64,000 bases of DNA from Alphaproteobacteria bacterium (GTDB taxonomy: Bacteria; Pseudomonadota; Alphaproteobacteria; UBA6615): positions 208,046 to 272,045 of the forward strand of contig JAALLF010000001.1 of assembly GCA_011087645.1 (NCBI GenBank), written 5' to 3'. This document shows positions 18,855 to 42,985 of the stretch, piece by piece; position 1 is the first letter of the stretch, and each line of letters opens with the position of its first letter. Both the position numbers and the translations under genes were made by a program. The notes under the pieces are model-generated. The model did no database searches and was not told the origin of the DNA. It worked only from the letters and a program-made list of their open reading frames with translations.

Positions 18855-18866
18855 AGCGAGGCGATC

Positions 18867-19640: not shown

Positions 19641-19678
19641 TCACACGACGCAGCCGAAGTTACGTCTCGGCAAATAAC

Positions 19679-19800: not shown

Positions 19801-19821
19801 TTGGCGCGTTAATCACCCGAC

Positions 19822-20883: not shown

Positions 20884-20964
20884 TTTACAATCATCGACAA
20901 CACCTCGCTTAGTTGCCTCCGCCGGTCAAGTCCGGGGTAACATAAAGCGCGAACTGGGCGGTTA

Positions 20965-21152
20965 GCCCCTCTCCCGCCGGGAGAGGGGTCGGGGTGAGGG
21001 GACATAATTCCATCCGCACCACCTCATCCTGAACTCGTCGAAGGATCGAGGTGGTGCGGCCCTCATACTTCGACAAGCGAGCCATGAGATGACTAATTTC
21101 CCCTCACCCGGCTCGCTGCTGCTCGCCACCCTCTCCCAACGGGAGAGGGTTT
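20965..21152. repeat. Mosaic intergenic repeat element, copy 4; ends with CCCTCTCCC-AAC-GGGAGAGGG plus T6
   Basis: Carries CCCCTCTCCC-GCC-GGGAGAGGGG, CACCTCATCCTGAACTCGTCGAAGGATCGAGGTGGTG and CCTCATACTTCGACAAGCG. Confidence 0.6.
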
Positions 21153-21153
21153 T

Positions 21154-22314: not shown

Positions 22315-22361
22315 AAGATCTGATGGCTCCGTAAATACTCAGACAGTTCGACGGTCACGTC

Positions 22362-22787
22362 TTAATCGATGATCGCCACCGCGTCGATTTCAATCAGACA
22401 TCTTGGGTCGGTCGCCAACTGCACCACCTGCACCGTCGTCGTGGTCGGCTTGTTGTCGCCAAAATATTCGCCCCATACTTTATTGAGCGAATCTTGGTCG
22501 GCCAGATCGGTGCAATACCGGTTAGCGGTGACGATATCGGCGAAGGTCGCGCCGACGGAATCGAGACCCTTCTTGATGTTTTCCAGCACCATGCGGGTCT
22601 GGCCCTCCATATCCGGCGGAATGCCGTCGAACTCTTCCGGCACATGGGGGTGGCTGTGATAAACCGGCGTCGCCGTACAGCCCGCTAGATAGACCGTGGT
22701 GCCGCCCTTGACCTTGATCGCCGGGGCATAGGGCATCCACATATCCGGTGCGTCGGGCCAGTGAATATGTTCGATTTCTTTCGCCAT
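22362..22787 (-). CDS. RidA/YjgF-family reactive-intermediate deaminase
   Basis: 141 aa of the YjgF/chorismate-mutase-like fold. Immediately downstream of, and co-oriented with, the PLP lyase. Confidence 0.8.
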   Translation of the reverse strand: MAKEIEHIHWPDAPDMWMPYAPAIKVKGGTTVYLAGCTATPVYHSHPHVPEEFDGIPPDMEGQTRMVLENIKKGLDSVGATFADIVTANRYCTDLADQDSLNKVWGEYFGDNKPTTTTVQVVQLATDPRCLIEIDAVAIID

Positions 22788-22865
22788 GATGGGCCTCCTT
22801 TTATGTGATTTGTTGCGCGCCAGTGTAGCGGGATATTCGCGTCCGAAACAGCGGCGGTTGTGCGA

Positions 22866-23852
22866 TTACGCGTCGTACGGCTCGTGGTGTCCCTTGCCCA
22901 GCGGATCACGGTAAGCGTCGGCGTTTTCCAGCAACCCGCGCGCCAACAGATCCTTGAATGAAGCGATGCTCTGCGCCACGCCGGTCGCCAGGCCGATGCG
23001 TGGCCAGTCGCCGACCAACGCGCGCAAAGCGCTATCGTCGAGCCCGCTCACGAAGGGTAGCGGGTCGCCGTCGATGCGCATTTGGGCCTCGGGCGCCACT
23101 TGGCTGATCGCCGCGATAACCTCGGCAATGGTGGTATCGGCGCCGCACAGATCGCAGACATGGACGCCGTCAACACCCGCTCGCGCCGTGCGAATAAACG
23201 CGTCGGCGACCTCGACCGTGTGCTGCAGCATGATCGGCCCGTCGAAGGGGACGGTAAAACGCTGCCCGCCGGCGGCCGCCAGCATCGCCTTGGTCGGCGC
23301 CGCGGTGACCCCCTGGTCGCGGCCGGGGCCATAGACCGTGTGGGGGCGGATACCGATGCTCGGCACCTGCCAGGTGCGCCAATAGACATCGGCGATGGCT
23401 TCGTCGGCCATCTTGAACGCGCCATACAGGGTGCTCGGCCATTTTTCGTCACCCGGCGGCAACGCGGCGACCGAACTGGCATAGGCCAGCCCCTTGATCC
23501 CCAGCGACCGCGCCGCCTCGAAGACATTAACCTGACCGACCACATTGACCTGAGCGCCCATAACCGGGTCGGCGTTGCAGAACGGCACTTGCAGGGCCGC
23601 CAGATGAACGATCGCCGCTATATTGTGGTCGGACATGACGTCCTTCAGCAGGTCCGGCTCGCGGATATCGCCGGTCACCCACGCCACCGCGTCGGCCGCC
23701 GCGCCATCCATCATCAAATGCAGGCGGCGGCGATCCTCAGCGATATCGAAGACCACCGGCGTGCCCCCATCACGCACCAGATTGGCGACCACCTGCGCGC
23801 CGATACAGCCCGCCGCGCCAATCACCAGAACCGGTCCGTCGGATAATGCCAT
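22866..23852 (-). CDS. NAD-dependent epimerase/dehydratase-family protein
   Basis: N-terminal VLVIGAAGCIGAQVV Rossmann motif and a YGAFK active-site motif. Confidence 0.8.
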   Translation of the reverse strand: MALSDGPVLVIGAAGCIGAQVVANLVRDGGTPVVFDIAEDRRRLHLMMDGAAADAVAWVTGDIREPDLLKDVMSDHNIAAIVHLAALQVPFCNADPVMGAQVNVVGQVNVFEAARSLGIKGLAYASSVAALPPGDEKWPSTLYGAFKMADEAIADVYWRTWQVPSIGIRPHTVYGPGRDQGVTAAPTKAMLAAAGGQRFTVPFDGPIMLQHTVEVADAFIRTARAGVDGVHVCDLCGADTTIAEVIAAISQVAPEAQMRIDGDPLPFVSGLDDSALRALVGDWPRIGLATGVAQSIASFKDLLARGLLENADAYRDPLGKGHHEPYDA

Positions 23853-24033
23853 TTTTACCTCCCCGTCGGACTGTGCCCGGGCCGCAATTTATTACCCAAG
23901 CACAGCAGGTCATAGGTGCTCTAAACCATTTGTTTACCCTATTCGTGCTCCTGTCGCGTGTGAACCGCGGCGAAGATAATAATGCCTTCTCCCGCCGGAT
24001 TACGGGGCGAAACTCGTCCCCAACAATGGACCA

Positions 24034-25458
24034 ATGATCGACCAACTGCCCCAAGGTATTTCAGACAGCTTCCTCAGCGGTGACTACCGCAAGACGGTCG
24101 CCAGCCTGGACGACGTGCTGGCGCTTGTGAAGACCAGCGAAATCGGGCCGGAACATATCGGGCAGGTCACGCCACCGCTGCGTGAGATTCTGCAAAATGC
24201 CGAGCGTGTTCACAACGAGCACGTCGAGCAAATTTCGACCGGCAAGGGTACCGTGCACCATCACACCCTCGTCGTGCGCAAGGTCGAAGAGGTCGTCGAC
24301 GAACTGGCCAATTGCGGTGCCGAAAAAACCGGCGAATTGATCCAGCTGTCGGCGGAGATCCATTACCTGATGCGCGATCTGGACAAGGCCATCGCCGTCC
24401 TAAAGGACAATGAAGAGATAGTCGCCGGCGATGGCCGTGCGATGCAGTTGCTCGCCACCTGCTACATGTTGAACGACCAGCCCGATGAAGCCGATCAATA
24501 TATCGGCATCGCGCTGAAAAAGGCGCCGGATGATTCCGAAAACATTCGTCTTGCCGGAAAAATCGCCGACCTCAAAAAGAAAGGCGGCCGCCGCCGCATC
24601 GTTTCCGGCCGCTGGCCCCACTCGTTGACGCCGCCATCGGAGCTCGAGACTGCGGCCAGGGACCTCGTACTCGCCGAAAATCCCTTCGACCGGGCCCTTC
24701 TTAGCGACCGGTCGCGCGTCGTCACCGTGGGCTCGTGCTTCGCCAACAACCTGGCTGCAATTTTCAAGCGGTTCGGCAGGGACGCCTTCTCCTTTCCATT
24801 CGGCGAAGAAATCAACAACACCTATACGAACCGGCTGGTCTTCGAGGCGCTTAGCAACGATGCCGGCGAGAACCGGACGACCACGTTGTCCGAGCTCGGT
24901 ATGTCGCAAGAGAGCGTGGACACGTTCGGCGATTATCTTCGAACGTCGGACATACTGGTCTACACGTTGGGCGTATCCCAGGGATTTTTCGACAGCGACG
25001 GCAAGCCGGTTCAATTAAAGGGCTTTGGCGGAGTCGACCGGACGTTGCTGAACAGCGCGGAATACCGGAATATTTCCGTGGCCGAGAACGTCGCCAATGT
25101 CGGGGCAATTATCGAGTGCGTGCGCAACCTGAACCCCGAGATCGCGATCGTCTTCACCGTATCGCCGGTCCCCCTGGCGCGCACCTTCAATTCGCGCGCC
25201 GTCGTCACCAGCGACTGTGTTTCGAAATCGGCGCTGCGGGTAACGGCAGCGGAGCTGACCCAGGGTCAGGCTGACCGGAAAATCTATTACTGGCCGTCGT
25301 TCGAAATCGCCAAGTGGATGGCACCCCATATGGCAGTCGAATCGATGGAAGATTACCATTTCGGCGCCGACGATCTTTATTCCCGCCACGTGTCTGACCA
25401 TGTCGTTGAGACAATCGTCCGCCTCTTCATCGAGTTCTCCTCAGGCGAAGCGGCATAA
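24034..25458 (+). CDS. Two-domain protein: N-terminal helical/TPR-like region (about 200 aa) plus C-terminal GSCFA-family domain
   Basis: The literal GSCFANN motif, then TVSPVPLARTF and YWPSFEI blocks typical of the GSCFA domain of unknown function. GC is slightly below the window average. Confidence 0.7.
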   Translation: MIDQLPQGISDSFLSGDYRKTVASLDDVLALVKTSEIGPEHIGQVTPPLREILQNAERVHNEHVEQISTGKGTVHHHTLVVRKVEEVVDELANCGAEKTGELIQLSAEIHYLMRDLDKAIAVLKDNEEIVAGDGRAMQLLATCYMLNDQPDEADQYIGIALKKAPDDSENIRLAGKIADLKKKGGRRRIVSGRWPHSLTPPSELETAARDLVLAENPFDRALLSDRSRVVTVGSCFANNLAAIFKRFGRDAFSFPFGEEINNTYTNRLVFEALSNDAGENRTTTLSELGMSQESVDTFGDYLRTSDILVYTLGVSQGFFDSDGKPVQLKGFGGVDRTLLNSAEYRNISVAENVANVGAIIECVRNLNPEIAIVFTVSPVPLARTFNSRAVVTSDCVSKSALRVTAAELTQGQADRKIYYWPSFEIAKWMAPHMAVESMEDYHFGADDLYSRHVSDHVVETIVRLFIEFSSGEAA

Positions 25459-25545
25459 ACTCACTTCTATATCTCACTGTCGAAGTTTCCCCATCCAGAT
25501 TTATCGCGGTATCCGATCTGTAACCGGACATGTCGGATGCGGCGA

Positions 25546-26391
25546 TCAGCCCCCGCGGTTCCAGCCCCACCAGGCACAGACGGCGTCGCCCATGACCAGG
25601 CGCTTGTCGTCCTCGCTGAGCCCGGGCAACGCTTCGGTGAACATGGTGATGCATTCCCGCCACGAGCACGGCATCTTGGTGATGTCGGTGCCCCAGAACG
25701 TACGCTCTGGCCCGAAGGCGTCAAAAATTTGGCGAACGTAGGTCTGCATGATCGGGAAGGGATAGGGCTCGCCCGAATAACCGGGCGCGCCGGTGACCTT
25801 GACCGACACGTTGGGGTATTTCGCCATCGCCAGCAGCTCCGGTATATGGGTCATTGCCTCGTGGTCTTTCAGGGTGGTCAGGCCGCCGCGGCCGCCCAGG
25901 TGATCGATGGTGAGCCGCAGGCCCGGATGACGCTCTGCAACACCAGCGATCAGATCCATCGAATCCGTCGCCAGCATGGCGATCGGTACGCCGGCCGCCT
26001 CTGCCGCCGGCCACAGCCAGTCGAACTCGCCATCGTGTAGCCATTGGCGCTCCGGATCGTTGAGCATCACATAGCGCAGGCCGAGCATGCCCGGCTGTTC
26101 GAGCAAAGTGGCCACCTGGTCTCTCGATTGTGGGTCCGTCGGCGGCAGCTCGCCGAGCATGGCAAACCGCCCGGGGTATTTTTCAACCGCGTCCAGCGCC
26201 ACCTGATGGCAGTTGGGATCCCAATGGACCAAATGGATAACCGCAGCATCGACGCCGGCTTCGTCCATCATGGCGATGGCTTCTTCCGCCGGAAAGGATG
26301 TCACCTGGCGGTGGGAAAGGTTACTGGGCAAACCGTTGCCCCACAAATGTATCTGCGCATCGACAATCCGCATATCTTCGTCATTCGTCAT
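25546..26391 (-). CDS. Amidohydrolase-2 (PF04909-type, ACMSD/LigI-like) metal-dependent hydrolase
   Basis: N-terminal IVDAQIHLW (HxH-type metal ligands) and TIM-barrel signature motifs. The alternative start is MRIV at 26373. Confidence 0.75.
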   Translation of the reverse strand: MTNDEDMRIVDAQIHLWGNGLPSNLSHRQVTSFPAEEAIAMMDEAGVDAAVIHLVHWDPNCHQVALDAVEKYPGRFAMLGELPPTDPQSRDQVATLLEQPGMLGLRYVMLNDPERQWLHDGEFDWLWPAAEAAGVPIAMLATDSMDLIAGVAERHPGLRLTIDHLGGRGGLTTLKDHEAMTHIPELLAMAKYPNVSVKVTGAPGYSGEPYPFPIMQTYVRQIFDAFGPERTFWGTDITKMPCSWRECITMFTEALPGLSEDDKRLVMGDAVCAWWGWNRGG

Positions 26392-26556
26392 TCGCTTAGC
26401 CCGTCTTGATCAGAAATTTCTATGTGGCATCGTTCACAAAGCCTAATTGTAGCGCGAGATAGTCTAGATGCGAACGCGCTGGTCACGTTCGACAACATAT
26501 CGGCCTAATAAGGCGCAAACTTGTAATCCGCTCACAGTTCAAGGAGCACAGACCTG

Positions 26557-27438
26557 ATGATTAGCGCCGTGATGCCCTACAAAAAGAAGACCGTTCAGGT
26601 GAACGGTTACGACATCGCTTATGTCGACGAGGGCGACGGCGATCCAATCGTCTTCGTTCACGGCAATGCGAACTCGTCGTATATGTGGCGCAACATCATG
26701 CCGCACCTGACAGGGCTCGGCCGGCTGATCGCCATCGACAATATCGGCCAGGGCGATTCGGAGAAGCTTCGCGACAGCGGTCCCGACAGCTATATGCTCG
26801 CCGAGCACCAGGTCTATTTCGACGGCGCGCTGGCGGCGCTCGGCGTGGACCACAACGTCACGCTGGTGGTGCACGATTGGGGCGGCACGCTCGGCCTGTC
26901 CTGGGCGGAGCGTCATCCGAGTGCAATCAAAGGGGTCGCCCATAGCGAAATCGTCGTCGCCAACCATGAAAGCTACGAGGCTTACCCCGACGGGCACGGC
27001 GAACGCATACGGCGGGCGCAGGGGCCGGACGGCGAAGCGTTGGTACTCGACGATAACTTCTTCGTCGAGAGGGTGTTCACCGGCGGCGTCATCCGCGAGA
27101 TGGATGGCCAAGCGATGGCCGAGATCCGCCGCCCCTATGAAGAGCCCGGTGAGGCGCGCCGCCCAACCTTGTCCTGGGTGCGGCAGATTCCGATCGGCGG
27201 CAAACCGGCCAATGTCGCGGAACTCAGCGGGCGGCTATCGGCATGGATGGCGACAACGGATTTTCCGAAACTGTTCATCCAAGCCGACCCGGGGCAAATC
27301 ATCTTCGGGGCCGATCTCGACATCATCGACAGCTGGCCCAACCAGTCGCGCATCCGGGTCAAGGGCCTGCATCATCCGCAGGAAGATTCTCCTGACGACA
27401 TCGGCAAGGGGCTCGCCGACTGGTATCGAAGCATCTGA
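26557..27438 (+). CDS. Haloalkane dehalogenase, HLD-II subfamily (DhaA-like)
   Basis: Aligns along its length with Rhodococcus DhaA. Matching blocks: HGNANSSYMWRNI (halide-stabilising Asn), VHDWGG (Asp nucleophile and Trp), IPIGGKPANV, and HHPQEDSPDDIG (catalytic His). AAGGAG RBS. Confidence 0.85.
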   Translation: MISAVMPYKKKTVQVNGYDIAYVDEGDGDPIVFVHGNANSSYMWRNIMPHLTGLGRLIAIDNIGQGDSEKLRDSGPDSYMLAEHQVYFDGALAALGVDHNVTLVVHDWGGTLGLSWAERHPSAIKGVAHSEIVVANHESYEAYPDGHGERIRRAQGPDGEALVLDDNFFVERVFTGGVIREMDGQAMAEIRRPYEEPGEARRPTLSWVRQIPIGGKPANVAELSGRLSAWMATTDFPKLFIQADPGQIIFGADLDIIDSWPNQSRIRVKGLHHPQEDSPDDIGKGLADWYRSI

Positions 27439-27464
27439 CGCCGCGTGGGGTAGAGGCCTGCCAA

Positions 27465-28496
27465 TTACTGGCGCACCAGATCGAGATTGCTCGGATCGGG
27501 TTTCAATTCGCCGGCATGAATCTGACGGCTCAGCTCGACCATGTGCTCGCACACGGGCGCGGGCCGGCCGTTTTTCTCGCATTCCTCCGCGACCAGGCCA
27601 TTGATCAGGGCAGTCTCGCAGAGGCGGCCCTTCATATGATCCTGCAGAGAGGTGTTGACCGGCCCGGGGCCAATGTCGAGCAGGATCTTGTCGAGCAGGG
27701 TCTCCAGCAGGTTATTGGTGTTGGTGACGTCTTCCGGCTTCAGCCCAAATACCGGCACGATCTTATAATCGAGCGATTGGCCGGCCGCCAAAGCCTCCTC
27801 GCCCGCCTGGAGAAACCATTCGCGCGCGCGCTGCGCGTAGGCCGCGCCGTTCTGCTTTAAGATCTGTTCGGGCGTGCCGCCGAGGATCGCCATCGACCCC
27901 ATGATCATGGAATTGACGATCAGCTTCATCCATTTCGCCGAAAGAATATCGTCGATCACTTCCAGCCGCCCGGAGTGGCCGAGAATCTCGGCGACCAGGT
28001 CGATATGGCGTTCTTGCGACGGGTCGAAGGCGCCGATGCCGTACCAAGTGTGATCCTTCGTGGTGCTGCGACGGACTTCGCCGGGTTCGAATATTTGTGA
28101 CGCCAGCTCGACGACACAACCCAGCGTGCGCTCGACACCGACGATCTCGGCGATTTCCTCAGCGGTCATGGCGTTCTGCACCCCGACCATCACGCCGTCT
28201 TCAGCGATGTATGGCTTGATGAACTCGGCTAGCCAGCGCGTGTCATAGGCTTTCGACACGAGAAGCACGACATCGAATTTTTCGGTGAACGTGCAAACGT
28301 CGCTCAAGTGAAAGGCGTTCACCGCCAGATTGGTTTCATCTTCGCCACTGGCGATCGTCAGACCGTTCGCCCGCATCTCCTCGATGTGCGCGCCCCACAT
28401 GTCAATCATGGTCACGTCCAAGCCCGCCTGGATCAGATCGGCGGAGATGACGCTTCCGTTTGCCCCTGTTCCCAGTATCGCGATTTTCTTATTCAT
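27465..28496 (-). CDS. Ketopantoate reductase (ApbA/PanE)-family NAD(P)-dependent oxidoreductase
   Basis: N-terminal IAILGTGANGS Rossmann motif and a C-terminal PanE helical domain. GGAGG RBS precedes ATG 28496, so the longer ORF to 28739 is rejected. Confidence 0.7.
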   Translation of the reverse strand: MNKKIAILGTGANGSVISADLIQAGLDVTMIDMWGAHIEEMRANGLTIASGEDETNLAVNAFHLSDVCTFTEKFDVVLLVSKAYDTRWLAEFIKPYIAEDGVMVGVQNAMTAEEIAEIVGVERTLGCVVELASQIFEPGEVRRSTTKDHTWYGIGAFDPSQERHIDLVAEILGHSGRLEVIDDILSAKWMKLIVNSMIMGSMAILGGTPEQILKQNGAAYAQRAREWFLQAGEEALAAGQSLDYKIVPVFGLKPEDVTNTNNLLETLLDKILLDIGPGPVNTSLQDHMKGRLCETALINGLVAEECEKNGRPAPVCEHMVELSRQIHAGELKPDPSNLDLVRQ

Positions 28497-28696
28497 TGGT
28501 TCCTGCCTCCAGTATCTATGTTCAACATCATAGGTTGTTGTTATTCGGCGCCTATATCCAATCGATAGCGATCGCGCAGCTTGCCAGTCTACGCCACCCG
28601 GCCGGCCCGGTGGAGAGGATATTTCACCGCAAGCCTCTGGTCGCCCGATACGACCACCTGTAGAATTTAGGGAGAAGATTAGCGGGAGGCCACGCC

Positions 28697-29569
28697 ATGA
28701 GTAGCCAAGAACAAGAGCTCGGCTCGCCGCCGGGGCCATCCGAGATTGAAGTGCCGATCCACTATATGGTGGACACCGGCGAAACGCCGGTTTTCCACCA
28801 AACGGCTTCGGCCGCCGACCCGGTCACCATGCGCGGCACGCGCGAGGCGCGTCCGATGACCATTCGCAACGCGCGCCTGCAGCCCGATGGCTTCTCGCTC
28901 GACGTGGAGGGGTTCACCTTCGCCGAGCATGTCACCGCGGTGGCCGATTTCTACGACGATGCGCAGTTGTCGTCGGTGTATACGCCGGAGATCGAACAGC
29001 TCATCGCCCGGATAGCCGGCGCCAGCGAGGTGGTGGTGTTCGACCACACCCGCCGCTCCACTGATGGCGCGCAACGGGTGAAGCGCGACTGGCGCGACCC
29101 GGTTCCCCTGCCGCACAGCGACTATACGGACGCATCGGCGGCGCAGCGTATGCGCGATGTGTTCGGTGACGGCGCAGACGACAGGCTGACCCGGCGCTTT
29201 GCCGTGGTGAATGTCTGGCGATCGATGACCGGCCCGATCGAACAGTGGCCGGTGGCGGTGTGCGATGCCCGTACGATCAACGACGATAGGATGCATAAAA
29301 TCGTGCGCAGCGCGCCACATCGCACCGAACCGTCCTTCGAATATTCGCGCAGCAGTGAGACCCGCCATGCGTCCTACGACGCCAACCACCGCTGGTTCTA
29401 TTTTCCGCAAATGACCCGCAACGAGACCCTGCTGTTCAAGAACTACGATACGTTGCGCGACGGTACCGCGCGCTATGCGCTGCACTCGGCTTTTGAAGAC
29501 CCGACCAGCCCATCCGATCCGGCACCGCGCGAAAGCATCGAGAGCAGAGCCTTTTTATTCTTCGATTAG
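28697..29569 (+). CDS. CmcJ/NvfI-family (7-alpha-cephem-methoxylase P8-like) putative oxygenase, paralog 1
   Basis: Shares the blocks WRDPVPLPHSDYT, VNVWRSM..PLAVCDAR, RWFYFPQMTRNETLLFK and HSAFEDP with the paralog at 34645 and with this family. Confidence 0.65.
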   Translation: MSSQEQELGSPPGPSEIEVPIHYMVDTGETPVFHQTASAADPVTMRGTREARPMTIRNARLQPDGFSLDVEGFTFAEHVTAVADFYDDAQLSSVYTPEIEQLIARIAGASEVVVFDHTRRSTDGAQRVKRDWRDPVPLPHSDYTDASAAQRMRDVFGDGADDRLTRRFAVVNVWRSMTGPIEQWPVAVCDARTINDDRMHKIVRSAPHRTEPSFEYSRSSETRHASYDANHRWFYFPQMTRNETLLFKNYDTLRDGTARYALHSAFEDPTSPSDPAPRESIESRAFLFFD

Positions 29570-29578
29570 GCGCGCGGT

Positions 29579-30193
29579 CTATGTCCGGCCTTCCTCCGCC
29601 AGGTCGTCCTTAATATGGCCGTCGTAGATTTTATCCGTGGCCGCCGGGTCCTTGCCGAGTTGGTCGGCGAACATGCGACCCGCCGTCGCGATGGTTCCCT
29701 GTGGCGCCTGCGCGTCCGCGCTCCATAAATGCGAGCGTTTGAGCGCCTTGGCGCAATGCAGGTAGGCTTCCTCGACATGCACGACGATGGCCGAGGCCGG
29801 CGCCCTGCCGTTAATAGCGAGGGGGTCGAGGATGCCAGGATCGATGGAGAGTTCCGCGCGACCGTTGACGCGCAATGTCTCATCCACGCCGGGGATCATA
29901 AACAACAGCCCGACATTCGGATTATCGAGAATGTTTTGCAATGAATCCATCCGATTATTGCCCTTGCGGTCGGGGATGATAATGGTGTTGTCGTCGAGCA
30001 CCTGGACAAATCCCGGATCATCGCCCTTCGGCGATACGTCGCCGTCGGTGCCCAGCACCAGAAACGGCGAATGGGCAATAAAGTTCCGGCAATGGGGGTC
30101 CAAGGCCGAAAGCTGTTTCTCGGCGGCGATGCCTTTGGGCTCGGGATAAATTTCACGAAGTCCCCGCGCATCGTTGATGATGTAGTCAGACAT
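29579..30193 (-). CDS. PNPOx-like FMN-binding split-barrel flavoprotein
   Basis: Pyridoxamine-5'-phosphate-oxidase-like fold (LFMIPGVDETLRVNGRA). AAAGGTGAG RBS precedes ATG 30193. Confidence 0.7.
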   Translation of the reverse strand: MSDYIINDARGLREIYPEPKGIAAEKQLSALDPHCRNFIAHSPFLVLGTDGDVSPKGDDPGFVQVLDDNTIIIPDRKGNNRMDSLQNILDNPNVGLLFMIPGVDETLRVNGRAELSIDPGILDPLAINGRAPASAIVVHVEEAYLHCAKALKRSHLWSADAQAPQGTIATAGRMFADQLGKDPAATDKIYDGHIKDDLAEEGRT

Positions 30194-30461
30194 CGAACTC
30201 ACCTTTCATCTGGTCGTGCGAAATTTGCAGGCGGCGAATTTAAGGCAGGCCGCAAAAGTGGAAAATGAAACGCAACGTTATGTTCGAAAGAGATTAGGTA
30301 CGGCCAAGGCGGGTGTCTAGCAATTCGAGAATGGCCGGTTGACCCCAATCCCGAAATCGGACACTCGGCCTTGATGGACTCGCTTGGTTTCCAAGCCTAG
30401 GATCGGCGGCGTTTTTCACGTTCGCGTCGGCGATTATCCAAGTTTTATGGGAGGGGCATTC

Positions 30462-31430
30462 ATGGCACAGCACGAACATTCTCACGGCAAAAGCAACCAT
30501 ATCGACGTGCATCATCATTTTTACCCGCCAGAGTTTCGCGACGCTGTCGACGACTTCTCAGGCTTCAAACTGCCGATGGTCGAGAATTGGACGCCCGAGG
30601 CCAGCCTGGAAGAGATGGATTCCAACGGGGTCAGCACAGCCATTCTGTCGCTATGGTCCATCCCCGGCGTTTGGATGGGCGCGGACGCGGCCGGCATGCG
30701 ACGTTGGGCGCGGCTGGTCAATGATTATGCCGCCGATATGCGGCGCGACAATCCGGGCCGCTTCGGGCTGTTCGCCGCACTGCCGATGCCCGATGTCGAA
30801 GGCAGTCTGGCCGAGATCGAATACGCGCTCGATGTCCTCAACGCCGACGGCGTCGGCCTGATGACCAATTACGGCGACACCTGGCCCGGCGACCCCGTCT
30901 ACCGGCCGGTGTTCGAGGAGCTCAACAGGCGCAAGGCCACCGTCTATTTCCACCCCGTGGCGCCGACCTGCTGCTCCGGCCAAATCATTCCCGGCGTTCA
31001 CGAAAGCTGGGCGGAAGTTATCTTCGATTCCGGGCGCGCCGTATTGAGCCTGCTGATCAACGGCGCCTTTCGCGATTTGCGCGATATCAATTGGATTTTC
31101 TCCCATTCCGGCGGCACCGCACCGGTCATCGCGCAACGCGCCGCCACGCTCGGCCGGCATTCCCCGCAACTACAAGAAGCCGCGCCCGACGGCGTCGCCG
31201 CGGAACTGACACGGCTGTATTATGAGATTGCCAATGGCTTCCATGCCCCGAACATGGCGGCGCTGCTGGCCTATATCCCGATCTCGCAAGTGATGTTCGG
31301 CACCGACTACCCCTATCTTTCGGTTGGCGACAATGTCGAAGGGCTGGCCGAGGTGATCAGCGGCGCCGATCTGGAAGCGATCCGCAGCGGCAACGCGCTT
31401 CGTCTATTCCCGCAATTTGCATCCGCATGA
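30462..31430 (+). CDS. Amidohydrolase-2 (ACMSD-like) metal-dependent hydrolase/decarboxylase
   Basis: N-terminal HIDVHHHFYPPEF metal-ligand motif and a C-terminal FGTDYPY motif. GGGAGGGG RBS. Confidence 0.75.
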   Translation: MAQHEHSHGKSNHIDVHHHFYPPEFRDAVDDFSGFKLPMVENWTPEASLEEMDSNGVSTAILSLWSIPGVWMGADAAGMRRWARLVNDYAADMRRDNPGRFGLFAALPMPDVEGSLAEIEYALDVLNADGVGLMTNYGDTWPGDPVYRPVFEELNRRKATVYFHPVAPTCCSGQIIPGVHESWAEVIFDSGRAVLSLLINGAFRDLRDINWIFSHSGGTAPVIAQRAATLGRHSPQLQEAAPDGVAAELTRLYYEIANGFHAPNMAALLAYIPISQVMFGTDYPYLSVGDNVEGLAEVISGADLEAIRSGNALRLFPQFASA

Positions 31431-31499
31431 CGGCGGGCGGCGACAGGTGCCTGCGTCTTAGCGATTAAGAACGCGATGCCGACATAATGCTGTGTTGGG

Positions 31500-32990
31500 T
31501 TAATCGAGCCGGTTGATGCCGTCGAAGGCGGCGGTCTTGTAGCACTCGGCCAAGGTCGGATAGTTGAACACGGTGTCGACGAAATAATCCACCGTACCGT
31601 CATGGGCCATAACGGCCTGGCCGATATGGATCAGCTCCGACGCACCTTCTCCGAGGATTGAAACCCCCAGAAGCTTGCGCGAATGGCGTTGGAACATCAA
31701 CTTCAACATGCCGGTCGAGTCGCCGATAATTTGACCGCGCGCGATCTCGCGATAGAACGCATGGCCGACCTCATAAGGTACGCCGTCCGCGGTGAGTTGG
31801 CCTTCATTTTTCCCGACCACCGAGATTTCGGGAATTGTATAGATGCCATACGGAAACAACTCGGCAACGCTTTCGGCTTCTGCGTCGAACGCATCGCAGG
31901 CGGCGAGCCTGCCTTGTTCCATCGACGTCGACGCCAGGCTGGGAAATCCGATGACATCGCCCACGGCGTAAATGTGGGGACACGATGTCTGGTAATTCTC
32001 ATTCACCGTGAGACGGCCGCGCTCATCGGCGGTGAGACCAGCCGCCGGCAGGTTAAGAGTGTCCGTCGCCCCGGTGCGGCCGATACTATAGAGCGCCTTC
32101 TGGGTGATGATCTGTTTACCGCTCTCCAGCTCGATGCAGACCTTCTTGCCCTTTGGTCCGTCGCAAATATCGAGAGACTCGACGTCTTCGCCGAGGCGGA
32201 AGGTCACGCGGTTCTGGCGCATCTGGTAGACCAGCGCATCGGTGATTTCGGAATCGATAAAGTCGAGCACGTTCGGGCGCTTGTCGATCACCGTCACACG
32301 CACGCCAAGGGTCGAAAACATCGTCGCATATTCGAGCCCTATGACACCGGCACCGACGATGGACAGACTATCGGGCAATTCCGTCAACTCCAATATGTCG
32401 TCGCTGGTGAAAATCTGCTGGCCATCGAACGGGATGGCGGAATCGCGGGTGGTTTCGGTCCCGACAGCGATCACAATACGATCGGCGGTGATGTCGCGCT
32501 GACCCCTGCCATCGAAAAAACTAAGCCGCACGGTGTGGTCGTCAACAAAACTGGCTTTCGCTTCCAGCACATTGACACCGTTGCGCTTTAGTTGATGGTT
32601 GGTGACGTCGATTTCGTTGCGGATCACATAATCGGCGCGGAACAGCAAATCCGCCATGGTGATATCCCGTTTCACGGCATAAGACGCACCATAGATATTG
32701 CGCTCGCGATAGCCCGACAGGTGAATAACCGCCTCGCGCAATGTCTTCGACGGGATCGTACCGGTATTGATACACACGCCGCCAACAACCGCGCGCCGTT
32801 CGATAATCGCCGCCCGCTTGCCCAGCTTGGCCGCCTGAATGGCGGCGCGTTGCCCGGCAGGTCCCGAGCCCAAGACCACCATATCGAAATCATACGCGGG
32901 CGACGGCTGCGGCGTGATATCGGATTCGGGTTTTTCGCTCCGGCTGAATTCTCCGGCAACATCGGCGACGGGAACGGCTTCAACACCCAT
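31500..32990 (-). CDS. sthA: Soluble pyridine nucleotide transhydrogenase (SthA/UdhA)
   Basis: The motif FDMVVLGSGPAGQRAA, the redox-disulfide region GGVCINTGTIPSK and a C-terminal dimerisation domain. The start codon is uncertain. Confidence 0.85.
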   Translation of the reverse strand: MGVEAVPVADVAGEFSRSEKPESDITPQPSPAYDFDMVVLGSGPAGQRAAIQAAKLGKRAAIIERRAVVGGVCINTGTIPSKTLREAVIHLSGYRERNIYGASYAVKRDITMADLLFRADYVIRNEIDVTNHQLKRNGVNVLEAKASFVDDHTVRLSFFDGRGQRDITADRIVIAVGTETTRDSAIPFDGQQIFTSDDILELTELPDSLSIVGAGVIGLEYATMFSTLGVRVTVIDKRPNVLDFIDSEITDALVYQMRQNRVTFRLGEDVESLDICDGPKGKKVCIELESGKQIITQKALYSIGRTGATDTLNLPAAGLTADERGRLTVNENYQTSCPHIYAVGDVIGFPSLASTSMEQGRLAACDAFDAEAESVAELFPYGIYTIPEISVVGKNEGQLTADGVPYEVGHAFYREIARGQIIGDSTGMLKLMFQRHSRKLLGVSILGEGASELIHIGQAVMAHDGTVDYFVDTVFNYPTLAECYKTAAFDGINRLD

Positions 32991-33142
32991 AATTTTTAGC
33001 TCACATAGTTACAGTGACCAGGTATTGGCCATTCCGCTTAACAAACTAATAACTCTCGCCGGGGCGGTGTCGGTGCGGCTGTGGCCGTAATTTAGCGTTT
33101 GCTGATTGACAGGCCCAGCAAGGGCGTTTAATCCTTGCCCAT

Positions 33143-33200
33143 CGCGCCGATTTGAGCGGCCAGCTTGCGGGCGCGTAATAAATGCAGCTAAACGGGCGAT
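33143..33200 (+). ncRNA. Candidate SAM-II-like riboswitch aptamer 1 (P1 CGCGCC/GGCGCG; loop GAUUUGAGCGGCCAGCUUGC pseudoknots with 3' GCAGCUAAAC)
   Basis: Sequence and H-type pseudoknot architecture resemble SAM-II elements upstream of met genes in Alphaproteobacteria. A second similar copy follows. Confidence 0.45.
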
Positions 33201-33208
33201 TGCATCAT

Positions 33209-33247
33209 CCGCCCAGCATGGCTGTGGCGGTTTTTTGTTGTTTTAGA
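33209..33247 (+). terminator. Intrinsic terminator (CCGCCCAGC-AUG-GCUGUGGCGG plus UUUUUUGUUGUUUU) immediately after aptamer 1
   Basis: Stem of about 9 bp followed by a long U tract, as read from the sequence. Confidence 0.6.
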
Positions 33248-33300
33248 ACCAGTTATGGAATTCCGGGCCGATCCCCCGGCGGCATAGCCGCGCACCGGAT

Positions 33301-33352
33301 CCGCGGTAATTTGATGGGCAGCTTGCGTCCGCGTCACCAATAGCTAAAGCGC
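33301..33352 (+). ncRNA. Candidate SAM-II-like riboswitch aptamer 2 (UAAUUUGAUGGGCAGCUUGCGUCCGCGUCACCAAUAGCUAAAGCGCC)
   Basis: Aligns position by position with aptamer 1 (AUUUGA..GGC.AGCUUGCG..CGCGU....AGCUAAA.). It sits directly 5' of the metZ start region. Confidence 0.45.
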
Positions 33353-33404
33353 CGTGGGACAGGTGTTCCGCGGGCCCGAATTCAGGCCTGGGAACCTATG
33401 TGTC

Positions 33405-34595
33405 ATGACCAAAGACCCCTCTAATTATCGCCAGGAGACCGCCCTGGTGCGCGGCGGCTTGCAGCGTTCGCCCAACCGCGAGACCAGCGAGGCGCTGTTT
33501 CTCAACTCCGGCTATGTGTTCGACGACGCAGCCCAAGCCGAAGCCGCGTTCAAGGGCGAGAACGACAACTACATCTATTCGCGCTACGGCAATCCCACGG
33601 TCACCATGTTCCAGGAGCGGCTGGCCGCGCTTGAGGGCGCGGAAGCCTGCTACGCCACCGCCACCGGCATGGCGGCGGTGTTCGCGTCCCTGGCCTGCCA
33701 GCTCAACGCCGGCGACCGGGTGGTGTCATCGCGCGCGGTGTTCGGCTCGTGCCACATCATCGTCGACCAGATCCTGCCGCGCTGGGGCATCGAGACCGTG
33801 TTCGTCGACGGCACCAATCTCGACGAATGGCAGGCGGCATTGTCTAAGCCGACCCACGCGGTGTTCCTGGAAAGCCCGTCCAACCCTATGCTCGATCTGG
33901 TCGATATCGCCGCGGTCAGCGAAATGGCCCACGCCGCCGGCGCCTGCGTCATCGTCGACAATGTGTTCGCCACGCCGCTTTATCAACGTCCGCTCGAGCT
34001 CGGCGCCGACATCGTGGTCTATTCCGCCACCAAACATATCGACGGCCAGGGGCGATGTCTGGGCGGCGCAGTGCTGGCCGATGCGGCTTTCATGACAGAG
34101 CGCTTTATGCCGTTCTACCGCCACACCGGCCCGGCGCTCAGCCCGTTCAATGCCTGGATTATGCTCAAGGCGTTGGAGACGCTATCGGTGCGCGTCGAGC
34201 GCCAATGCGACAACTCGCTTGACCTAGCGCGCTTCCTGCTAGCCCAACCGAAGGTCACCAAAGTCTGCCATCCGGGGCTGGAGAGCCACCCCCAAGCCGA
34301 GCTGGCGCGGCGGCAAATGTCAGGCTTCGGCAATCTGGTGACCTTCGAAGTCGAGGGCGGTAAGGCGGCGGCATTCCGGATCGCCGACGCCCTGCGGCTC
34401 ATCGATATCTCCAACAATCTCGGCGATACCAAGAGCCTGATCTGCCACCCGGCGACCACCACCCATTCCAGACTATCCGAAGAAGAGCGCAGCCAGCTCG
34501 GCATCTCACCCGGCGTCTTACGCATCTCGGTGGGCTTGGAACATCTCGACGATCTGAAGGAAGATCTGGAGCGCGCGCTCGCCGCTTTGCCCTAG
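33405..34595 (+). CDS. metZ: O-succinylhomoserine sulfhydrylase
   Basis: Full-length colinear similarity to MetZ, including a PLP-lysine motif (SATKHIDGQGR). ATG 33405 matches the length of MetZ homologs. GTG 33354 is an alternative start. Confidence 0.85.
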   Translation: MTKDPSNYRQETALVRGGLQRSPNRETSEALFLNSGYVFDDAAQAEAAFKGENDNYIYSRYGNPTVTMFQERLAALEGAEACYATATGMAAVFASLACQLNAGDRVVSSRAVFGSCHIIVDQILPRWGIETVFVDGTNLDEWQAALSKPTHAVFLESPSNPMLDLVDIAAVSEMAHAAGACVIVDNVFATPLYQRPLELGADIVVYSATKHIDGQGRCLGGAVLADAAFMTERFMPFYRHTGPALSPFNAWIMLKALETLSVRVERQCDNSLDLARFLLAQPKVTKVCHPGLESHPQAELARRQMSGFGNLVTFEVEGGKAAAFRIADALRLIDISNNLGDTKSLICHPATTTHSRLSEEERSQLGISPGVLRISVGLEHLDDLKEDLERALAALP

Positions 34596-34644
34596 CGATC
34601 AACCGGCCTATATAATTTCCGCAGCGGCCGAGGAGATAGCAACG

Positions 34645-35481
34645 ATGACCCTGTTAGCACCCGAAGAAACGGAAACCGGCTTCGTTGAAGCCAATCTGAG
34701 CTACACAGTCGATACCGGCGTGAAACCGGTCAACCAGACCATGGGTCCCGGCGATATGTCGCGGCGGATCGTCGGCACGGTGGAAGACCATTTGATGACC
34801 ATCCGCGATGGCCGGCCGCTGCGCGACGAATTCGCCGCCGACGTCACCGGGTTCGAGTTCGTCGACCACCAAACCGCCATGACCGATTTCTACAACGCCG
34901 ACGCGCTTAAATCGGTCTACTATCCAGAGGTCGAGGCGTTGATTAAAGCGCGCATCGGCGCGGCGCGGGTTCATATCTTCGATCACACGCTACGCTCGGG
35001 CGACGAGGCAGCCCGCAACGAAAAACTGCTCCGCGAGCCGGTGCTATCGGTGCACAACGACTATACCGAATGGTCGGGCCCACAACGGGTGCGCGAATTG
35101 ATGCCGGCCGACGAGGTCGAGGATTTATTGAGCCGCCGCTTCGCCATCGTCCAGGTATGGCGGCCGATCCGCAATCCCATCCAATCGAACCCGCTGGCGA
35201 TCTGCGACGCGCGCTCCCTGTCGGCAGACAACCTCATCGCCTCGGAGCGCCGTTACCCGGACCGGGTCGGCGAGACCTACCGGATTTCGCACGACGCTGA
35301 CCAGCGCTGGTTCTATTTTCCCAATATGACCCGCAACGAGGCCTTGCTGTTCAAGGTGTTCGATTCCGCCACCGACGGCCGCGCCCGCTTCACCCCCCAC
35401 ACCTCGTTCGACGACCCCAACACGCCGCCGGACGCACCGGCCCGCGAATCGATCGAGGTTCGCGCCCTGGTGTTTTTTTAA
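34645..35481 (+). CDS. CmcJ/NvfI-family putative oxygenase, paralog 2
   Basis: Roughly 40-45% identical by eye to the 28697 paralog. Shared blocks include HNDYTEW, VQVWRPI..PLAICDARS, RWFYFPNMTRNEALLFK and HTSFDDP. Confidence 0.65.
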   Translation: MTLLAPEETETGFVEANLSYTVDTGVKPVNQTMGPGDMSRRIVGTVEDHLMTIRDGRPLRDEFAADVTGFEFVDHQTAMTDFYNADALKSVYYPEVEALIKARIGAARVHIFDHTLRSGDEAARNEKLLREPVLSVHNDYTEWSGPQRVRELMPADEVEDLLSRRFAIVQVWRPIRNPIQSNPLAICDARSLSADNLIASERRYPDRVGETYRISHDADQRWFYFPNMTRNEALLFKVFDSATDGRARFTPHTSFDDPNTPPDAPARESIEVRALVFF

Positions 35482-35504
35482 GCGGCGGGTCGATTGGGTT
35501 CGCC

Positions 35505-35600
35505 GCCCTCATACTTCGACAAGCTTAGTATGAGGAATAATGTTGGTGAGAATAAAAACTCAGCCTCATCCTGAGCTTGTCGAAGGACGAGGCTTCAATC
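35505..35600. repeat. Mosaic intergenic repeat element, copy 5
   Basis: CCCTCATACTTCGACAAGCTTAGTATGAGG ... CCTCATCCTGAGCTTGTCGAAGGACGAGG. Confidence 0.6.
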
Positions 35601-35609
35601 AAATAGTAC

Positions 35610-36377
35610 CTACCCGATCCAGGCGCCGCCGTTCACGTCGAGCACCGCGCCGGTGGTGAAACCGGCGCCGGGCGTCGATAGGTACAGAATCGCGTGGGCC
35701 AGTTCTTCCGACGTGCCGAGGCGGCGCACCGGGGTTCCGGCGGCGCGTTGGGCTAAATGTTCCTCGCTGTGGCGCCCCACCCGCGGCGTGCGCACCAGGC
35801 CCGGCGCCACCACGTTGACGGTGATGCCGAACGGAGCGACTTCAATCGCAAGGCGCCGGGTGAGGCCAACCACGGCGGCCTTGCCAGTGGCGTAGTCCAA
35901 CGATGCGCCGCGCGACGCGGTACGCCCGGCGACCGACGAGATATTGACGATACGCCCATAGCTGTTGCGCTTCATGATCGGCACCACCTCGCGGCTGATC
36001 AGGAACTTGGTGTCGATGTTCCAGCTCAGCCCCTTGGCCCACATCTCGTCGGTGATCTCTTCGATGTCCGGCGCGTCGAGGAACCCGCCGGCGCAATTGA
36101 CCAGAATATCGACCCGGCCCCAGGCTTCGTCGACCACACCCACTACAGCCTTCATGTCACTGGAGTCGGCGCACTCGCCGGTCAGAAACATAGCCTCCGC
36201 GCCGCTGTCTTGCAGATCGCCGACGATCCGCGCGCCGGCCTCCTGGTTGCGGCCAACGATGGCGACCTTCGCACCCTCAGCCGCGAACCGCTCGACGCAA
36301 CCCTGGCCGATGCCCGCCGTGCCGCCGGTCACGATGGCCACCTGTCCCTCGATGGAGGCCAGTTCCGATACCGTCAT
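35610..36377 (-). CDS. SDR-family oxidoreductase
   Basis: Motifs VTGGTAGIGQG and NCAGG, plus a YxxxK-type motif. GGGAGAG RBS precedes ATG 36377. Confidence 0.8.
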   Translation of the reverse strand: MTVSELASIEGQVAIVTGGTAGIGQGCVERFAAEGAKVAIVGRNQEAGARIVGDLQDSGAEAMFLTGECADSSDMKAVVGVVDEAWGRVDILVNCAGGFLDAPDIEEITDEMWAKGLSWNIDTKFLISREVVPIMKRNSYGRIVNISSVAGRTASRGASLDYATGKAAVVGLTRRLAIEVAPFGITVNVVAPGLVRTPRVGRHSEEHLAQRAAGTPVRRLGTSEELAHAILYLSTPGAGFTTGAVLDVNGGAWIG

Positions 36378-36509
36378 GTTATTCTCTCCCGCGAAATATG
36401 TTGGCCGCCATGCCGCCACATTCGCCAGCCAAATGCAATCGGCGGGTAATTGTGGCAATCTTCGATGGCGGCCATCGGGTCGCGGCGCACGAAAGATCAG
36501 AAGGGTCCT

Positions 36510-39381: not shown

Positions 39382-39456
39382 TGGTGGGCGCGGTAGGGAT
39401 TGAACCTACGACCCCCTCGATGTCACCGAGGTGCTCTCCCGCTGAGCTACGCGCCC
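39382..39456 (-). tRNA. tRNA-Val (anticodon GAC)
   Basis: The reverse complement folds as a cloverleaf: acceptor GGGCGCG/CGCGCCC, D-arm GCTC-AGCGGGA-GAGC, anticodon stem CCTCG with loop GUGACAU (anticodon GAC), T-arm GTAGG-TTCAATC-CCTAC, and an encoded CCA. Confidence 0.85.
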
Positions 39457-40209: not shown

Positions 40210-41094
40210 ATGGATCAAGAAACCCGAATCGATGCCGATCAAGCGATCGAGATTCTGGCGCCGGTGCAACAAACGGCGCCGCTGGTTTTTTCATCCCCCC
40301 ATAGCGGCCGCGACTATCCGGCGGACTTTCTGGCCGCCGCCCGCCTCGACGATCAGGCAATTCGGCGCTCGGAAGACAGTTTCGTTGACGAAATTTTCGC
40401 CACCGCCCCCCATTACGGCGCGCCGCTGCTCAGAGCGCTGTTTCCGCGCGCTTATGTCGACCCCAATCGCGAACCCTATGAGCTTGATCCGGCGATGTTC
40501 GACGGGGCCCTGCCCGGCTATGTGAACAAACGCTCGCCGCGGGTCGCCGCCGGGCTAGGGACAATCGCCAGGGTAGTCGCCAACGGCGCCGAAATTTATG
40601 CTGGCAAGCTGAAATTTGACGAGGCCCATGCGCGCATCGACCGGTGCTACCGGCCCTACCACGCAGCGCTAGAAGACCTCATCGAGACCACTCAGCGACG
40701 CTTCAACCATTGTATCTTGATCGACTGCCATTCCATGCCGTCGGTCGGCGGACCAATGGAAAACGACGCCGGCCATCGCCGCCAGGTGGATTTCGTGCTG
40801 GGCGATGCCCACGGCCGCAGCTGCTCGCGCGCGTTGACCGTGATGGTTGAGGAAACCCTGCGCGGCATGGGCTACACCGTGGTGCGCAACGCCCCCTATT
40901 CGGGCGGCTTCATCACCCGCAATTACGGCCAACCGGCCAAGGGTGTGCACGCCCTGCAGATTGAGATTAATCGCGGGCTTTACATGTATGAACCGACCTA
41001 TTCCCGCAGCGACGAAATGGCCGCGGTGGTGGCCAACATTGCTCAGCTAACCGAGCGCCTGGTGGGCTTAGAGCCGCAGGCGCTCGCCGCCTAA
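40210..41094 (+). CDS. N-formylglutamate amidohydrolase-family protein
   Basis: FGase (PF05013)-type motifs SSPHSGRDYP and IDCHSMPS. Confidence 0.8.
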   Translation: MDQETRIDADQAIEILAPVQQTAPLVFSSPHSGRDYPADFLAAARLDDQAIRRSEDSFVDEIFATAPHYGAPLLRALFPRAYVDPNREPYELDPAMFDGALPGYVNKRSPRVAAGLGTIARVVANGAEIYAGKLKFDEAHARIDRCYRPYHAALEDLIETTQRRFNHCILIDCHSMPSVGGPMENDAGHRRQVDFVLGDAHGRSCSRALTVMVEETLRGMGYTVVRNAPYSGGFITRNYGQPAKGVHALQIEINRGLYMYEPTYSRSDEMAAVVANIAQLTERLVGLEPQALAA

Positions 41095-41117
41095 CCGCGA
41101 CAATTCGGCGAAACACC

Positions 41118-41651
41118 TTGCCCGGCGATAGCGTTTTTATCCGTGATGCGACCGAAGACGATCTGGCGGCGATCCAGCTTATCTATGCCCATCACGTGAA
41201 CCACGGCTTGGCGTCGTTCGAAGAAATACCGCCCGACCTCGCGGAAATTTCGCGCCGCCGCGATGTGGCCCGCGAACATGATCTGCCCTACCTGGTCGCC
41301 GAGCAGGAAGGCGCGGTCCGCGGCTTCGCCTATGCCAGTCCGTTTCGCGACCGCACCGCCTACCGCTACACCGTCGAGGATTCGGTCTATGTGGCGCCAG
41401 ACGCGCTGGGCGGCGGCGTCGGCTCGGCGCTATTATCAGCGGTGATCGAACACTGCACCGAACGGGGATTCCGCCAGATGATCGCGGTAATCGGCGATAC
41501 CGCCAACCAAGCCTCGATCGGCCTCCACGCCAAACATGGGTTCGTTCACGCCGGTGAGATGCCGGCTGTCGGGTTCAAGTTCGGCCGTTGGGTCGATAGC
41601 GTGCGCATGCAACGCGCCCTGGGTGAGGGCGATAAAACCCTGCCGGAATGA
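41118..41651 (+). CDS. GNAT-family N-acetyltransferase (phosphinothricin-acetyltransferase-like)
   Basis: GNAT motif A region GVGSALLSAVIEHCTERGFRQMIAVI. Confidence 0.8.
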   Translation: MPGDSVFIRDATEDDLAAIQLIYAHHVNHGLASFEEIPPDLAEISRRRDVAREHDLPYLVAEQEGAVRGFAYASPFRDRTAYRYTVEDSVYVAPDALGGGVGSALLSAVIEHCTERGFRQMIAVIGDTANQASIGLHAKHGFVHAGEMPAVGFKFGRWVDSVRMQRALGEGDKTLPE

Positions 41652-42675: not shown

Positions 42676-42985
42676 TCGACGACCGCGGCGGGGCTACGGC
42701 GTAAAAAAAAGGCCGCGGTCGAAACCACGGCCCAAGTAAAGGGAGGAAACGCTAAATATGCGGCCTCGGCGTTAGTCCGATACCGCAACGCAGTATTTAC
42801 TTCGCATATGCAGCATTTTCAAGACTTCGGATAACTATCTGAAAATAAGAACTCTTTGTAAATTTTCCTAGTCGCGTACGAAATATAATTTCAACATTAT
42901 ATTGCATTGCACAATTTTCTTGAGCGGCGTACTTTTAATCTCCTCAAAAGCGGCTGTCTGGCACAGGAATTGCTCCACATAACCC

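Follow-up and report, generated by a model that had tools for sequence, protein, structure and literature searches.

Two CmcJ/NvfI-family paralogs in an alphaproteobacterial genome: anciently diverged, probable stand-alone Fe(II)/2-oxoglutarate dioxygenases

In the cephamycin C pathway of Streptomyces and Nocardia, CmcJ serves as the hydroxylase partner of the methyltransferase CmcI, and together the two proteins make up the 7-alpha-cephem methoxylase. CmcJ is the bacterial namesake of the CmcJ/NvfI family, to which two genes belong that are named PAR1 and PAR2 here (Table 1). Both lie in a stretch of 64,000 nucleotides (nt) from an Alphaproteobacteria bacterium (assembly GCA_011087645.1, contig JAALLF010000001.1, positions 208,046 to 272,045, forward strand), which is referred to as the window below. 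Based on the comparisons presented in this work, PAR1 and PAR2 are likely to be anciently diverged, independently transcribed, stand-alone Fe(II)/2-oxoglutarate (2OG) dioxygenases, whose closeness goes back to a lineage-specific block of genes and not to a shared pathway.

Two fungal members of the family have been described in detail. NvfI of Aspergillus novofumigatus (PDB 7DE2/7ENB/7EMZ) is an Fe(II)/alpha-ketoglutarate-dependent endoperoxidase of novofumigatonin biosynthesis, and its crystal structure displays a double-stranded beta-helix (DSBH) core with a His/Asp/His iron site (PMC8292354). The triad residues appear to be printed there in swapped order, with numbers that differ by 20 from the PDB chain index. 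The substrate is contacted by loop I (residues 122-128) and loop II (residues 199-209). CTB9 of Cercospora (PDB 7EUS/7EUT/7EUU) is a 2OG dioxygenase required for closing the methylenedioxy bridge of cercosporin (PMC6004482). On the bacterial side, our literature search found no characterised family member besides CmcJ. DcmB, encoded in the dichloromethane-dehalogenase cluster dcmRABC of methylotrophic Alphaproteobacteria, was described as approximately 30% identical to a cephamycin hydroxylation/methyl-transfer protein (PMC7760279), a description from which a likeness to CmcJ is not distinguishable from one to CmcI. If DcmB were CmcJ-like, it would be a dichloromethane-induced bacterial member of the CmcJ/NvfI family.

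Family membership, fold and iron site of PAR1 and PAR2

An earlier note on this DNA had proposed that the two open reading frames (ORFs) are paralogs, and this was borne out. Both lie where they had been placed, and the encoded proteins are 46% identical over 275 residues (BLASTP, E 2e-78), a likeness far beyond chance. The shared blocks quoted at the time were seen in the alignment as HSDYT/HNDYT, VWR..P.A.CDAR, RWFYFP.MTRNE.LLFK and H..F.DP. Orthologs in other assemblies reach 80-88% identity for PAR1 and 74-88% for PAR2. Since each protein has far closer relatives elsewhere than its paralog in the window, the duplication is old and does not reflect a recent tandem event. The two subtypes also differ in a 9-residue insert of PAR1-type proteins (PAR1 residues ~209-217), and in a motif that reads DHTRRS in PAR1-type and DHTLRS in PAR2-type proteins.

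The assignment to the CmcJ/NvfI family was confirmed with the profile search that the earlier note had proposed. The NCBIfam model NF041278 ('CmcJ/NvfI family oxidoreductase') matched both proteins from end to end (model positions 1-3 to 263 of 263), with 258 bits for PAR1 and 318 bits for PAR2 at a cut-off of 80. Pfam PF27522 is precomputed for both, and the older Pfam copy that was scanned gave no match for either because it predates PF27522 and lacks this model. The remark that such proteins are often mis-annotated was correct as well, as public records do carry the label 'methyltransferase'; we take CmcJ to be the source from which the relatives of PAR1 and PAR2 inherited it. The appropriate annotation for both genes is Fe(II)/2-oxoglutarate dioxygenase of the CmcJ/NvfI family in place of methyltransferase.

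Two descriptions of the family had to be revised. It was called rare, yet a search with PAR2 gave at least 8,000 matches among clusters at 90% identity. At 50% identity, when 1.84 billion cluster representatives were searched exhaustively, 6,865 clusters matched with E<=1e-3, 3,594 with E<=1e-10 and 677 with E<=1e-30. The complete chromosome OZ253937.1 alone holds at least three copies (loci L005, L008 and L041 in our numbering of comparison loci), and copies on plasmids and chromids are routinely named 'CmcJ/NvfI family oxidoreductase' by PGAP. The family was also called poorly characterised and probably Fe-dependent, although crystal structures define NvfI and CTB9 as Fe(II)/2-oxoglutarate dioxygenases (PMC8292354; PDB titles). 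PAR1 and PAR2 are added members of an already known, structurally characterised family.

A third subtype, 49-53% identical to PAR1, was observed in the same marine alphaproteobacterial genomes (L041-L063 and L074, e.g. L048 10001-10795), and these genomes therefore hold at least three family paralogs. Its context is fairly conserved, downstream of two large ORFs of ~770 and ~610 aa (neighbour clusters c1 and c4) that resemble, by eye, a molybdopterin oxidoreductase subunit and a TypA/BipA-like GTPase.

By sequence, CTB9 (7EUS) and NvfI (7DE2) are the only solved relatives. A phmmer search of the PDB with PAR1 gave E values of 8e-30 and 4e-28, respectively, and a PAR2 profile gave 2e-42 and 1e-37. 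This profile was built from alignment A3 (21 PAR2-type sequences), in which the mean column identity is 77%, so that PAR2-type proteins are highly conserved. The structure prediction that had been suggested as a check for a metal site was carried out for PAR1. The AlphaFold2 model, built on 25 orthologs, reached a mean predicted local distance difference test (pLDDT) score of 87.5 and a predicted template modelling (pTM) score of 0.87. In a Foldseek search of the PDB, the top 10 matches were all CTB9 or NvfI chains (E 2.5e-24 to 5e-23, template modelling (TM) scores 0.78-0.85), followed by the 2-oxoglutarate oxygenases PtlH, SnoN, WelO5, EasH and FtmOx1. The CTB9/NvfI fold with an aligned 2-His-1-carboxylate pattern (HxD...H) is consequently seen for PAR1.

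The putative iron ligands are H140 (H140-S-D142), D142 and H263 in PAR1, and H137 (H137-N-D139), D139 and H252 in PAR2. In both proteins, the HxD motif and the distal His are aligned with their counterparts in NvfI and CTB9, and the ligand columns are invariant in A3 as well as in alignments A1 and A2 (8 and 25 sequences), which cover the PAR1 ligand columns. Equally invariant in A1-A3 is the Arg pair of a C-terminal PRESIExR motif (R278/R284 in PAR1, R267/R273 in PAR2), which is common to NvfI and CTB9. Judged from their position after the distal His, these arginines may help to bind 2OG. By analogy with the characterised members, dependence on Fe(II) and 2OG and an oxygen-transfer chemistry are to be expected for both proteins: each would fold as a DSBH, bind Fe(II) through the His-x-Asp...His ligands and hold 2OG with the help of the PRESIExR arginines. 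Decarboxylation of 2OG with O2 would yield an Fe(IV)-oxo species, which would then hydroxylate or otherwise oxidise a small-molecule substrate.

A comparison with the three described systems shows what the window proteins share with them and where they differ. NvfI falls into the same NF041278 family, is 26% identical across the DSBH domain (TM 0.79-0.85), and has a single domain of ~290 aa with the HxD...H and C-terminal PRESIxxR motifs aligned. However, it is a fungal enzyme acting on a large meroterpenoid from within a meroterpenoid cluster (PMC8292354, PMC6030086), whereas the window proteins are bacterial, stand-alone and outside any biosynthetic cluster. CTB9 is the best PDB match in both sequence and structure (28% identity, TM 0.80-0.82), with the same iron-ligand pattern. 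It differs in being fungal, in its perylenequinone substrate, in working with CTB10 within the CTB cluster (PMC6004482), and in insertions relative to the bacterial proteins. The likeness to CmcJ is drawn via the family model that both window proteins match. In contrast to cmcJ, which adjoins cmcI in a beta-lactam cluster, PAR1 and PAR2 have no cmcI-like methyltransferase or beta-lactam genes among their neighbours according to Pfam, NCBIfam and precomputed annotation.

Genomic context of the two paralogs

The earlier note read the region of ~25.5-36.4 kb as one oxidative or catabolic cluster, in which the dioxygenases, a PPOX-type flavoprotein (PPOX), amidohydrolases, a dehalogenase, a ketopantoate-reductase-family oxidoreductase (KPR) and a short-chain dehydrogenase (SDR) act on one molecule. 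All these enzyme types do occur within 11 kb. However, OZ253937.1 (4.33 Mb), the complete genome closest to the window, has its PAR1 ortholog (80%) at 0.45-0.47 Mb and its PAR2 ortholog (75%) at 3.83-3.85 Mb, a distance of ~0.95 Mb if the chromosome is circular.

The proximity in the window can be traced to a single block. The window is collinear with L005, the PAR2 region of OZ253937.1, at 16712-23842 and 33104-36438 (blastn), and the interval in between contains, in this order, genes for a GSCFA-domain protein, an amidohydrolase, the haloalkane dehalogenase, KPR, PAR1, PPOX, a second amidohydrolase and SthA. It fills a slot between an NAD-epimerase gene (22866-23852) and the metZ riboswitch. 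The same slot holds 1.1 kb with an acetyltransferase and a methyltransferase gene in L005 (7265-8409), is empty in L158 (~3342-3454), and carries a P450 gene in L159 (~1421-3234); L158 and L159 otherwise retain the arrangement epimerase, slot, riboswitch, metZ, PAR2, SDR. Relative to these three relatives, the PAR1 block is an indel. PAR1 is found 5 kb from PAR2 in this genome because the lineage-specific block sits in a variable slot upstream of metZ-PAR2-SDR. The GC content of the block matches its flanks, and no mobile-element signature was detected at it (no meaningful boundary repeats, no integrase, the sole tRNA 6 kb away). Only KPR and PAR1, with their divergent intergenic region (27473-29575), are found together elsewhere in OZ253937.1, where a 79% KPR ortholog adjoins the PAR1 ortholog.

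Table 1. Features of the window discussed in the text (window coordinates; aa, amino acids; bit scores with model cut-offs where available).
Feature	Position	Strand	Description and support
Lineage-specific block	23843..33103		9.3 kb, eight genes including PAR1; missing at the syntenic position in relatives
Amidohydrolase	25546-26391	-	PF04909 (Pfam)
Haloalkane dehalogenase	26557-27438	+	NF002938, 321 bits (cut-off 241)
KPR	27465-28496	-	Ketopantoate-reductase-family (ApbA/PanE) NAD(P)H oxidoreductase; PF02558, PF08546; divergent from PAR1
PAR1	28697..29569	+	Putative Fe(II)/2-oxoglutarate dioxygenase, 290 aa, CmcJ/NvfI family, 'DHTRRS' subtype
PPOX	29579-30193	-	PPOX-type FMN flavoprotein, MSMEG_1061 family; PF01243; TIGR04025, 237 bits (cut-off 170); convergent with PAR1
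Amidohydrolase	30462-31430	+	PF04909 (Pfam)
SthA	31500-32990	-	NF003585, 647 bits
MetZ	33405-34595	+	O-succinylhomoserine sulfhydrylase; TIGR01325, 587 bits
Promoter-like box	34587..34616	+	TTGCCC-N18-TATAAT in the metZ-PAR2 spacer; 10/12 consensus match
PAR2	34645..35481	+	Putative Fe(II)/2-oxoglutarate dioxygenase, 278 aa, CmcJ/NvfI family, 'DHTLRS' subtype
SDR	35610-36377	-	Short-chain dehydrogenase; PF00106, PF13561; convergent with PAR2

For PAR1, one genome per GTDB species was scanned, which resulted in 69 loci with PAR1-like subtypes. In 37 of these, the PAR1-like gene was 56-82% identical, and the rest represented other subtypes. Eleven window proteins were then searched by tblastn within 10 kb of each locus. 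KPR was recovered only in OZ253937.1, PPOX only in L007, and the amidohydrolase of 25546-26391 only in L024, where an 81% ortholog lies 2 kb from a 57% PAR1-like gene, which speaks for the one-cluster proposal. An extra look-up of close orthologs added L155 (PAR1 82%). In L007 and L155, an 86-87% PPOX ortholog adjoins the 80-82% PAR1 ortholog, divergently and not convergently as in the window, so the adjacency has survived a rearrangement. Neither KPR nor PPOX accompanies PAR1 in L156 (80%), where insertion sequence (IS) transposase genes flank it, or in L157 (73%). Taken together, the adjacency of PAR1 with PPOX and/or KPR is weak and clade-restricted. At 56-70% identity, the contexts of PAR1-type loci differ and are lineage-restricted: some have enoyl-CoA hydratase, GH18 and ABC-transporter neighbours, others have glycosyltransferase and polysaccharide genes alongside, and others again are next to a pair of formylglutamate-amidohydrolase and acetyltransferase genes (40210-41651 in the window).

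The L156 locus deserves a separate remark. In its segment 339-5771, the PAR1 ortholog is placed directly downstream of two DDE_Tnp_1 transposase genes of identical length and a DDE_3/HTH transposase gene, which suggests that PAR1 was moved by IS activity in this lineage.

The PAR2 sample comprised 80 metagenome loci (60-75% identity). MetZ and SDR were both kept in a single one of them (75% identity), and they flank PAR2 only at >=74% identity. The order MetZ-PAR2-SDR is present in L005, L075, L158 and L159, with SDR orthologs of 81-90% in L005 and L075; in L158 and L159, the corresponding position is likewise occupied by an SDR gene. It is lost in L160, where a 69% PAR2 ortholog on a 2-Mb contig has an unrelated context with kinase, CMD, GFA and Rieske genes. 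The commonest neighbour, an NAD-dependent epimerase gene, occurred in 17 of the 80 loci, and TctC or TRAP transporter genes were found as well. De novo clustering of the neighbours of all 69 genome and 80 metagenome loci revealed lineage-restricted partners only, none of them in more than ~20% of the loci. Three of the neighbour clusters (d3, d6 and d15) were rejected as spurious, as they consist of high-GC antisense ORFs.

Conserved co-localisation of the paralogs beyond background synteny was accordingly not found, the partners being missing in nearly all of the 149 loci. Nor is the region organised like an operon. From 25.5 to 36.4 kb the strands alternate (- + - + - + - + + -), and only metZ and PAR2 share a strand in succession. 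The spacer between these two contains a promoter-like box (Table 1) that is conserved in L005 and L075, while the spacer sequence around it has diverged or grown longer there. Across the region as a whole, promoter-like matches occur at the level expected by chance. This box suggests that PAR2 has a dedicated promoter and would be transcribed on its own.

Weighing of alternative explanations

Several points weigh against the view of two independent, stand-alone enzymes. Sampling of the neighbourhoods was biased: metagenome-assembled genomes from a single marine alphaproteobacterial group make up most of the genome loci, the metagenome contigs are in many cases short, and genes in the comparison loci were called by a crude longest-ORF heuristic. 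Regarding PAR1, the same PPOX ortholog adjoins it in three of the six informative loci with >=73% identity, in two orientations, and KPR does so in two of the six, a pattern that could come from a small functional module. The earlier note had let its proposal depend on co-conservation with the flanking flavoprotein and amidohydrolase genes; this is essentially lacking across the 149 loci, and these two adjacencies are the sole residue of it. Regarding PAR2, its start follows metZ in the same direction after only 49 nt, with no terminator detected on the plus strand in between. Read-through from metZ, which is behind SAM-II riboswitches, may thus co-express PAR2.

The PAR1 adjacencies might be explained by a module of PAR1 with KPR and/or PPOX that acts on one metabolite, for example by hydroxylation followed by reduction or oxidation, with PAR2 unrelated. 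That KPR and PAR1, with the region between them, are the sole part of the block reunited elsewhere in OZ253937.1 is in line with this idea, as is the PPOX ortholog abutting PAR1 in L007 and L155 despite the changed orientation. We nevertheless consider such a module unlikely. The association is limited to the clade of >=80% identity, in which L156 lacks both partners, as does L157 at 73%; none of the PAR1-type loci at 56-70% has KPR or PPOX, and the two are never both present outside the window.

Of similarly doubtful standing is a broader proposal, which takes PAR1 with KPR and/or PPOX as a small clade-specific redox module. PAR2 would represent a widespread 2OG oxygenase that works on its own and has a common primary metabolite or a damage product as its substrate, rather than a secondary metabolite. 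The PAR2 subtype is 60-70% identical across marine Alphaproteobacteria, soil Burkholderiales-like and other lineages, and it has no fixed neighbours. If true, either this PAR2 function or the PAR1 module would give the large bacterial branch of the CmcJ/NvfI family its first physiological role.

PAR2 could further be the distal gene of a metZ operon controlled by S-adenosylmethionine (SAM) riboswitches, with a function in sulfur or methionine metabolism such as oxidative release or salvage under low SAM. Besides the short same-strand gap free of a detected terminator, the two SAM-II aptamers upstream of metZ, conserved in the four relatives that keep metZ-PAR2, favour this explanation. It is very unlikely all the same, given the conserved -35/-10-like box in the spacer, the spacer length of ~90-300 nt in relatives, and the loss of metZ adjacency at <=70% identity (79 of the 80 metagenome loci and L160) although the protein itself is highly conserved.

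The one-cluster proposal, finally, is largely refuted by the synteny data and extremely unlikely, because the orthologs of the paralogs are far apart in OZ253937.1, the PAR1 block was inserted in one lineage only, the gene set is broken up by the housekeeping gene sthA and by metZ with its riboswitch control, alternating strands preclude an operon, and neither the proposed partners (among them the amidohydrolases, dehalogenase and SDR) nor SthA and MetZ recur with PAR1 or PAR2 beyond shallow synteny in the 149 loci, even though the PAR2 ortholog of L160 with its Rieske, SnoaL, SDR and PF04909 neighbours indicates that family members can occur in catabolic-looking settings.

With two stand-alone dioxygenases as the preferred reading, PAR1 and PAR2 are unsuitable as markers of a pathway cluster. 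The bacterial branch of the family is large, with thousands of clusters and, in these marine Alphaproteobacteria, several copies in a genome. Assigning any substrate within it would be of value. This locus offers no special handle on the substrate question, and its importance extends little beyond the correction of the annotation.

Neighbouring genes and minor observations

All gene calls of the earlier note for the neighbours of PAR1 and PAR2 proved right by Pfam and NCBIfam (Table 1). KPR scored 126 bits against TIGR00745, under the cut-off of 141, and is therefore no bona fide PanE. Its longest ORF, 27465-28739(-), comprises 424 aa and shares 43 nt with the beginning of PAR1. Domain similarity sets in only at residue ~84, and the protein is 343-353 aa long according to other gene calls. 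The 424-aa ORF is thus probably over-extended, with the true start near 28496, which leaves a divergent intergenic region of 200 nt common to KPR and PAR1.

Upstream of metZ, two SAM-II aptamers (SAM_alpha, RF00521) were observed, the first at 33134-33211(+) with 48.6 bits and the second at 33293-33367(+) with 33.8 bits, slightly short of the gathering score (36). Between the two lies a hairpin with a U-run that resembles a terminator (~33209-33245, -18.3 kcal/mol, z -1.6). All four relatives examined (L005, L075, L158 and L159) have this tandem layout ahead of metZ, with the aptamers ~160 nt apart; their second aptamer scored 33.9-38.5 bits and exceeded the gathering score in L158 (38.5). Such a layout may combine transcriptional and translational control.

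A second Cys/Met-metabolism pyridoxal-phosphate (PLP) enzyme is encoded at 21154-22314(-). It is 38% identical to MetZ and adjoins a RidA/L-PSP gene at 22362-22787(-). Window 19822-20883 is homologous to L005 2929-3959, which suggests a PALP-domain gene beside the PLP/RidA pair, and the whole set (19822-22787(-)) is syntenic in L005 and L158. Two RNA genes further downstream are likewise syntenic in L005, namely a tRNA-Val(GAC) at 39382-39456(-) and an mmgR/suhB-family small RNA (RF00519, 46.7 bits) at 42696-42768(-).

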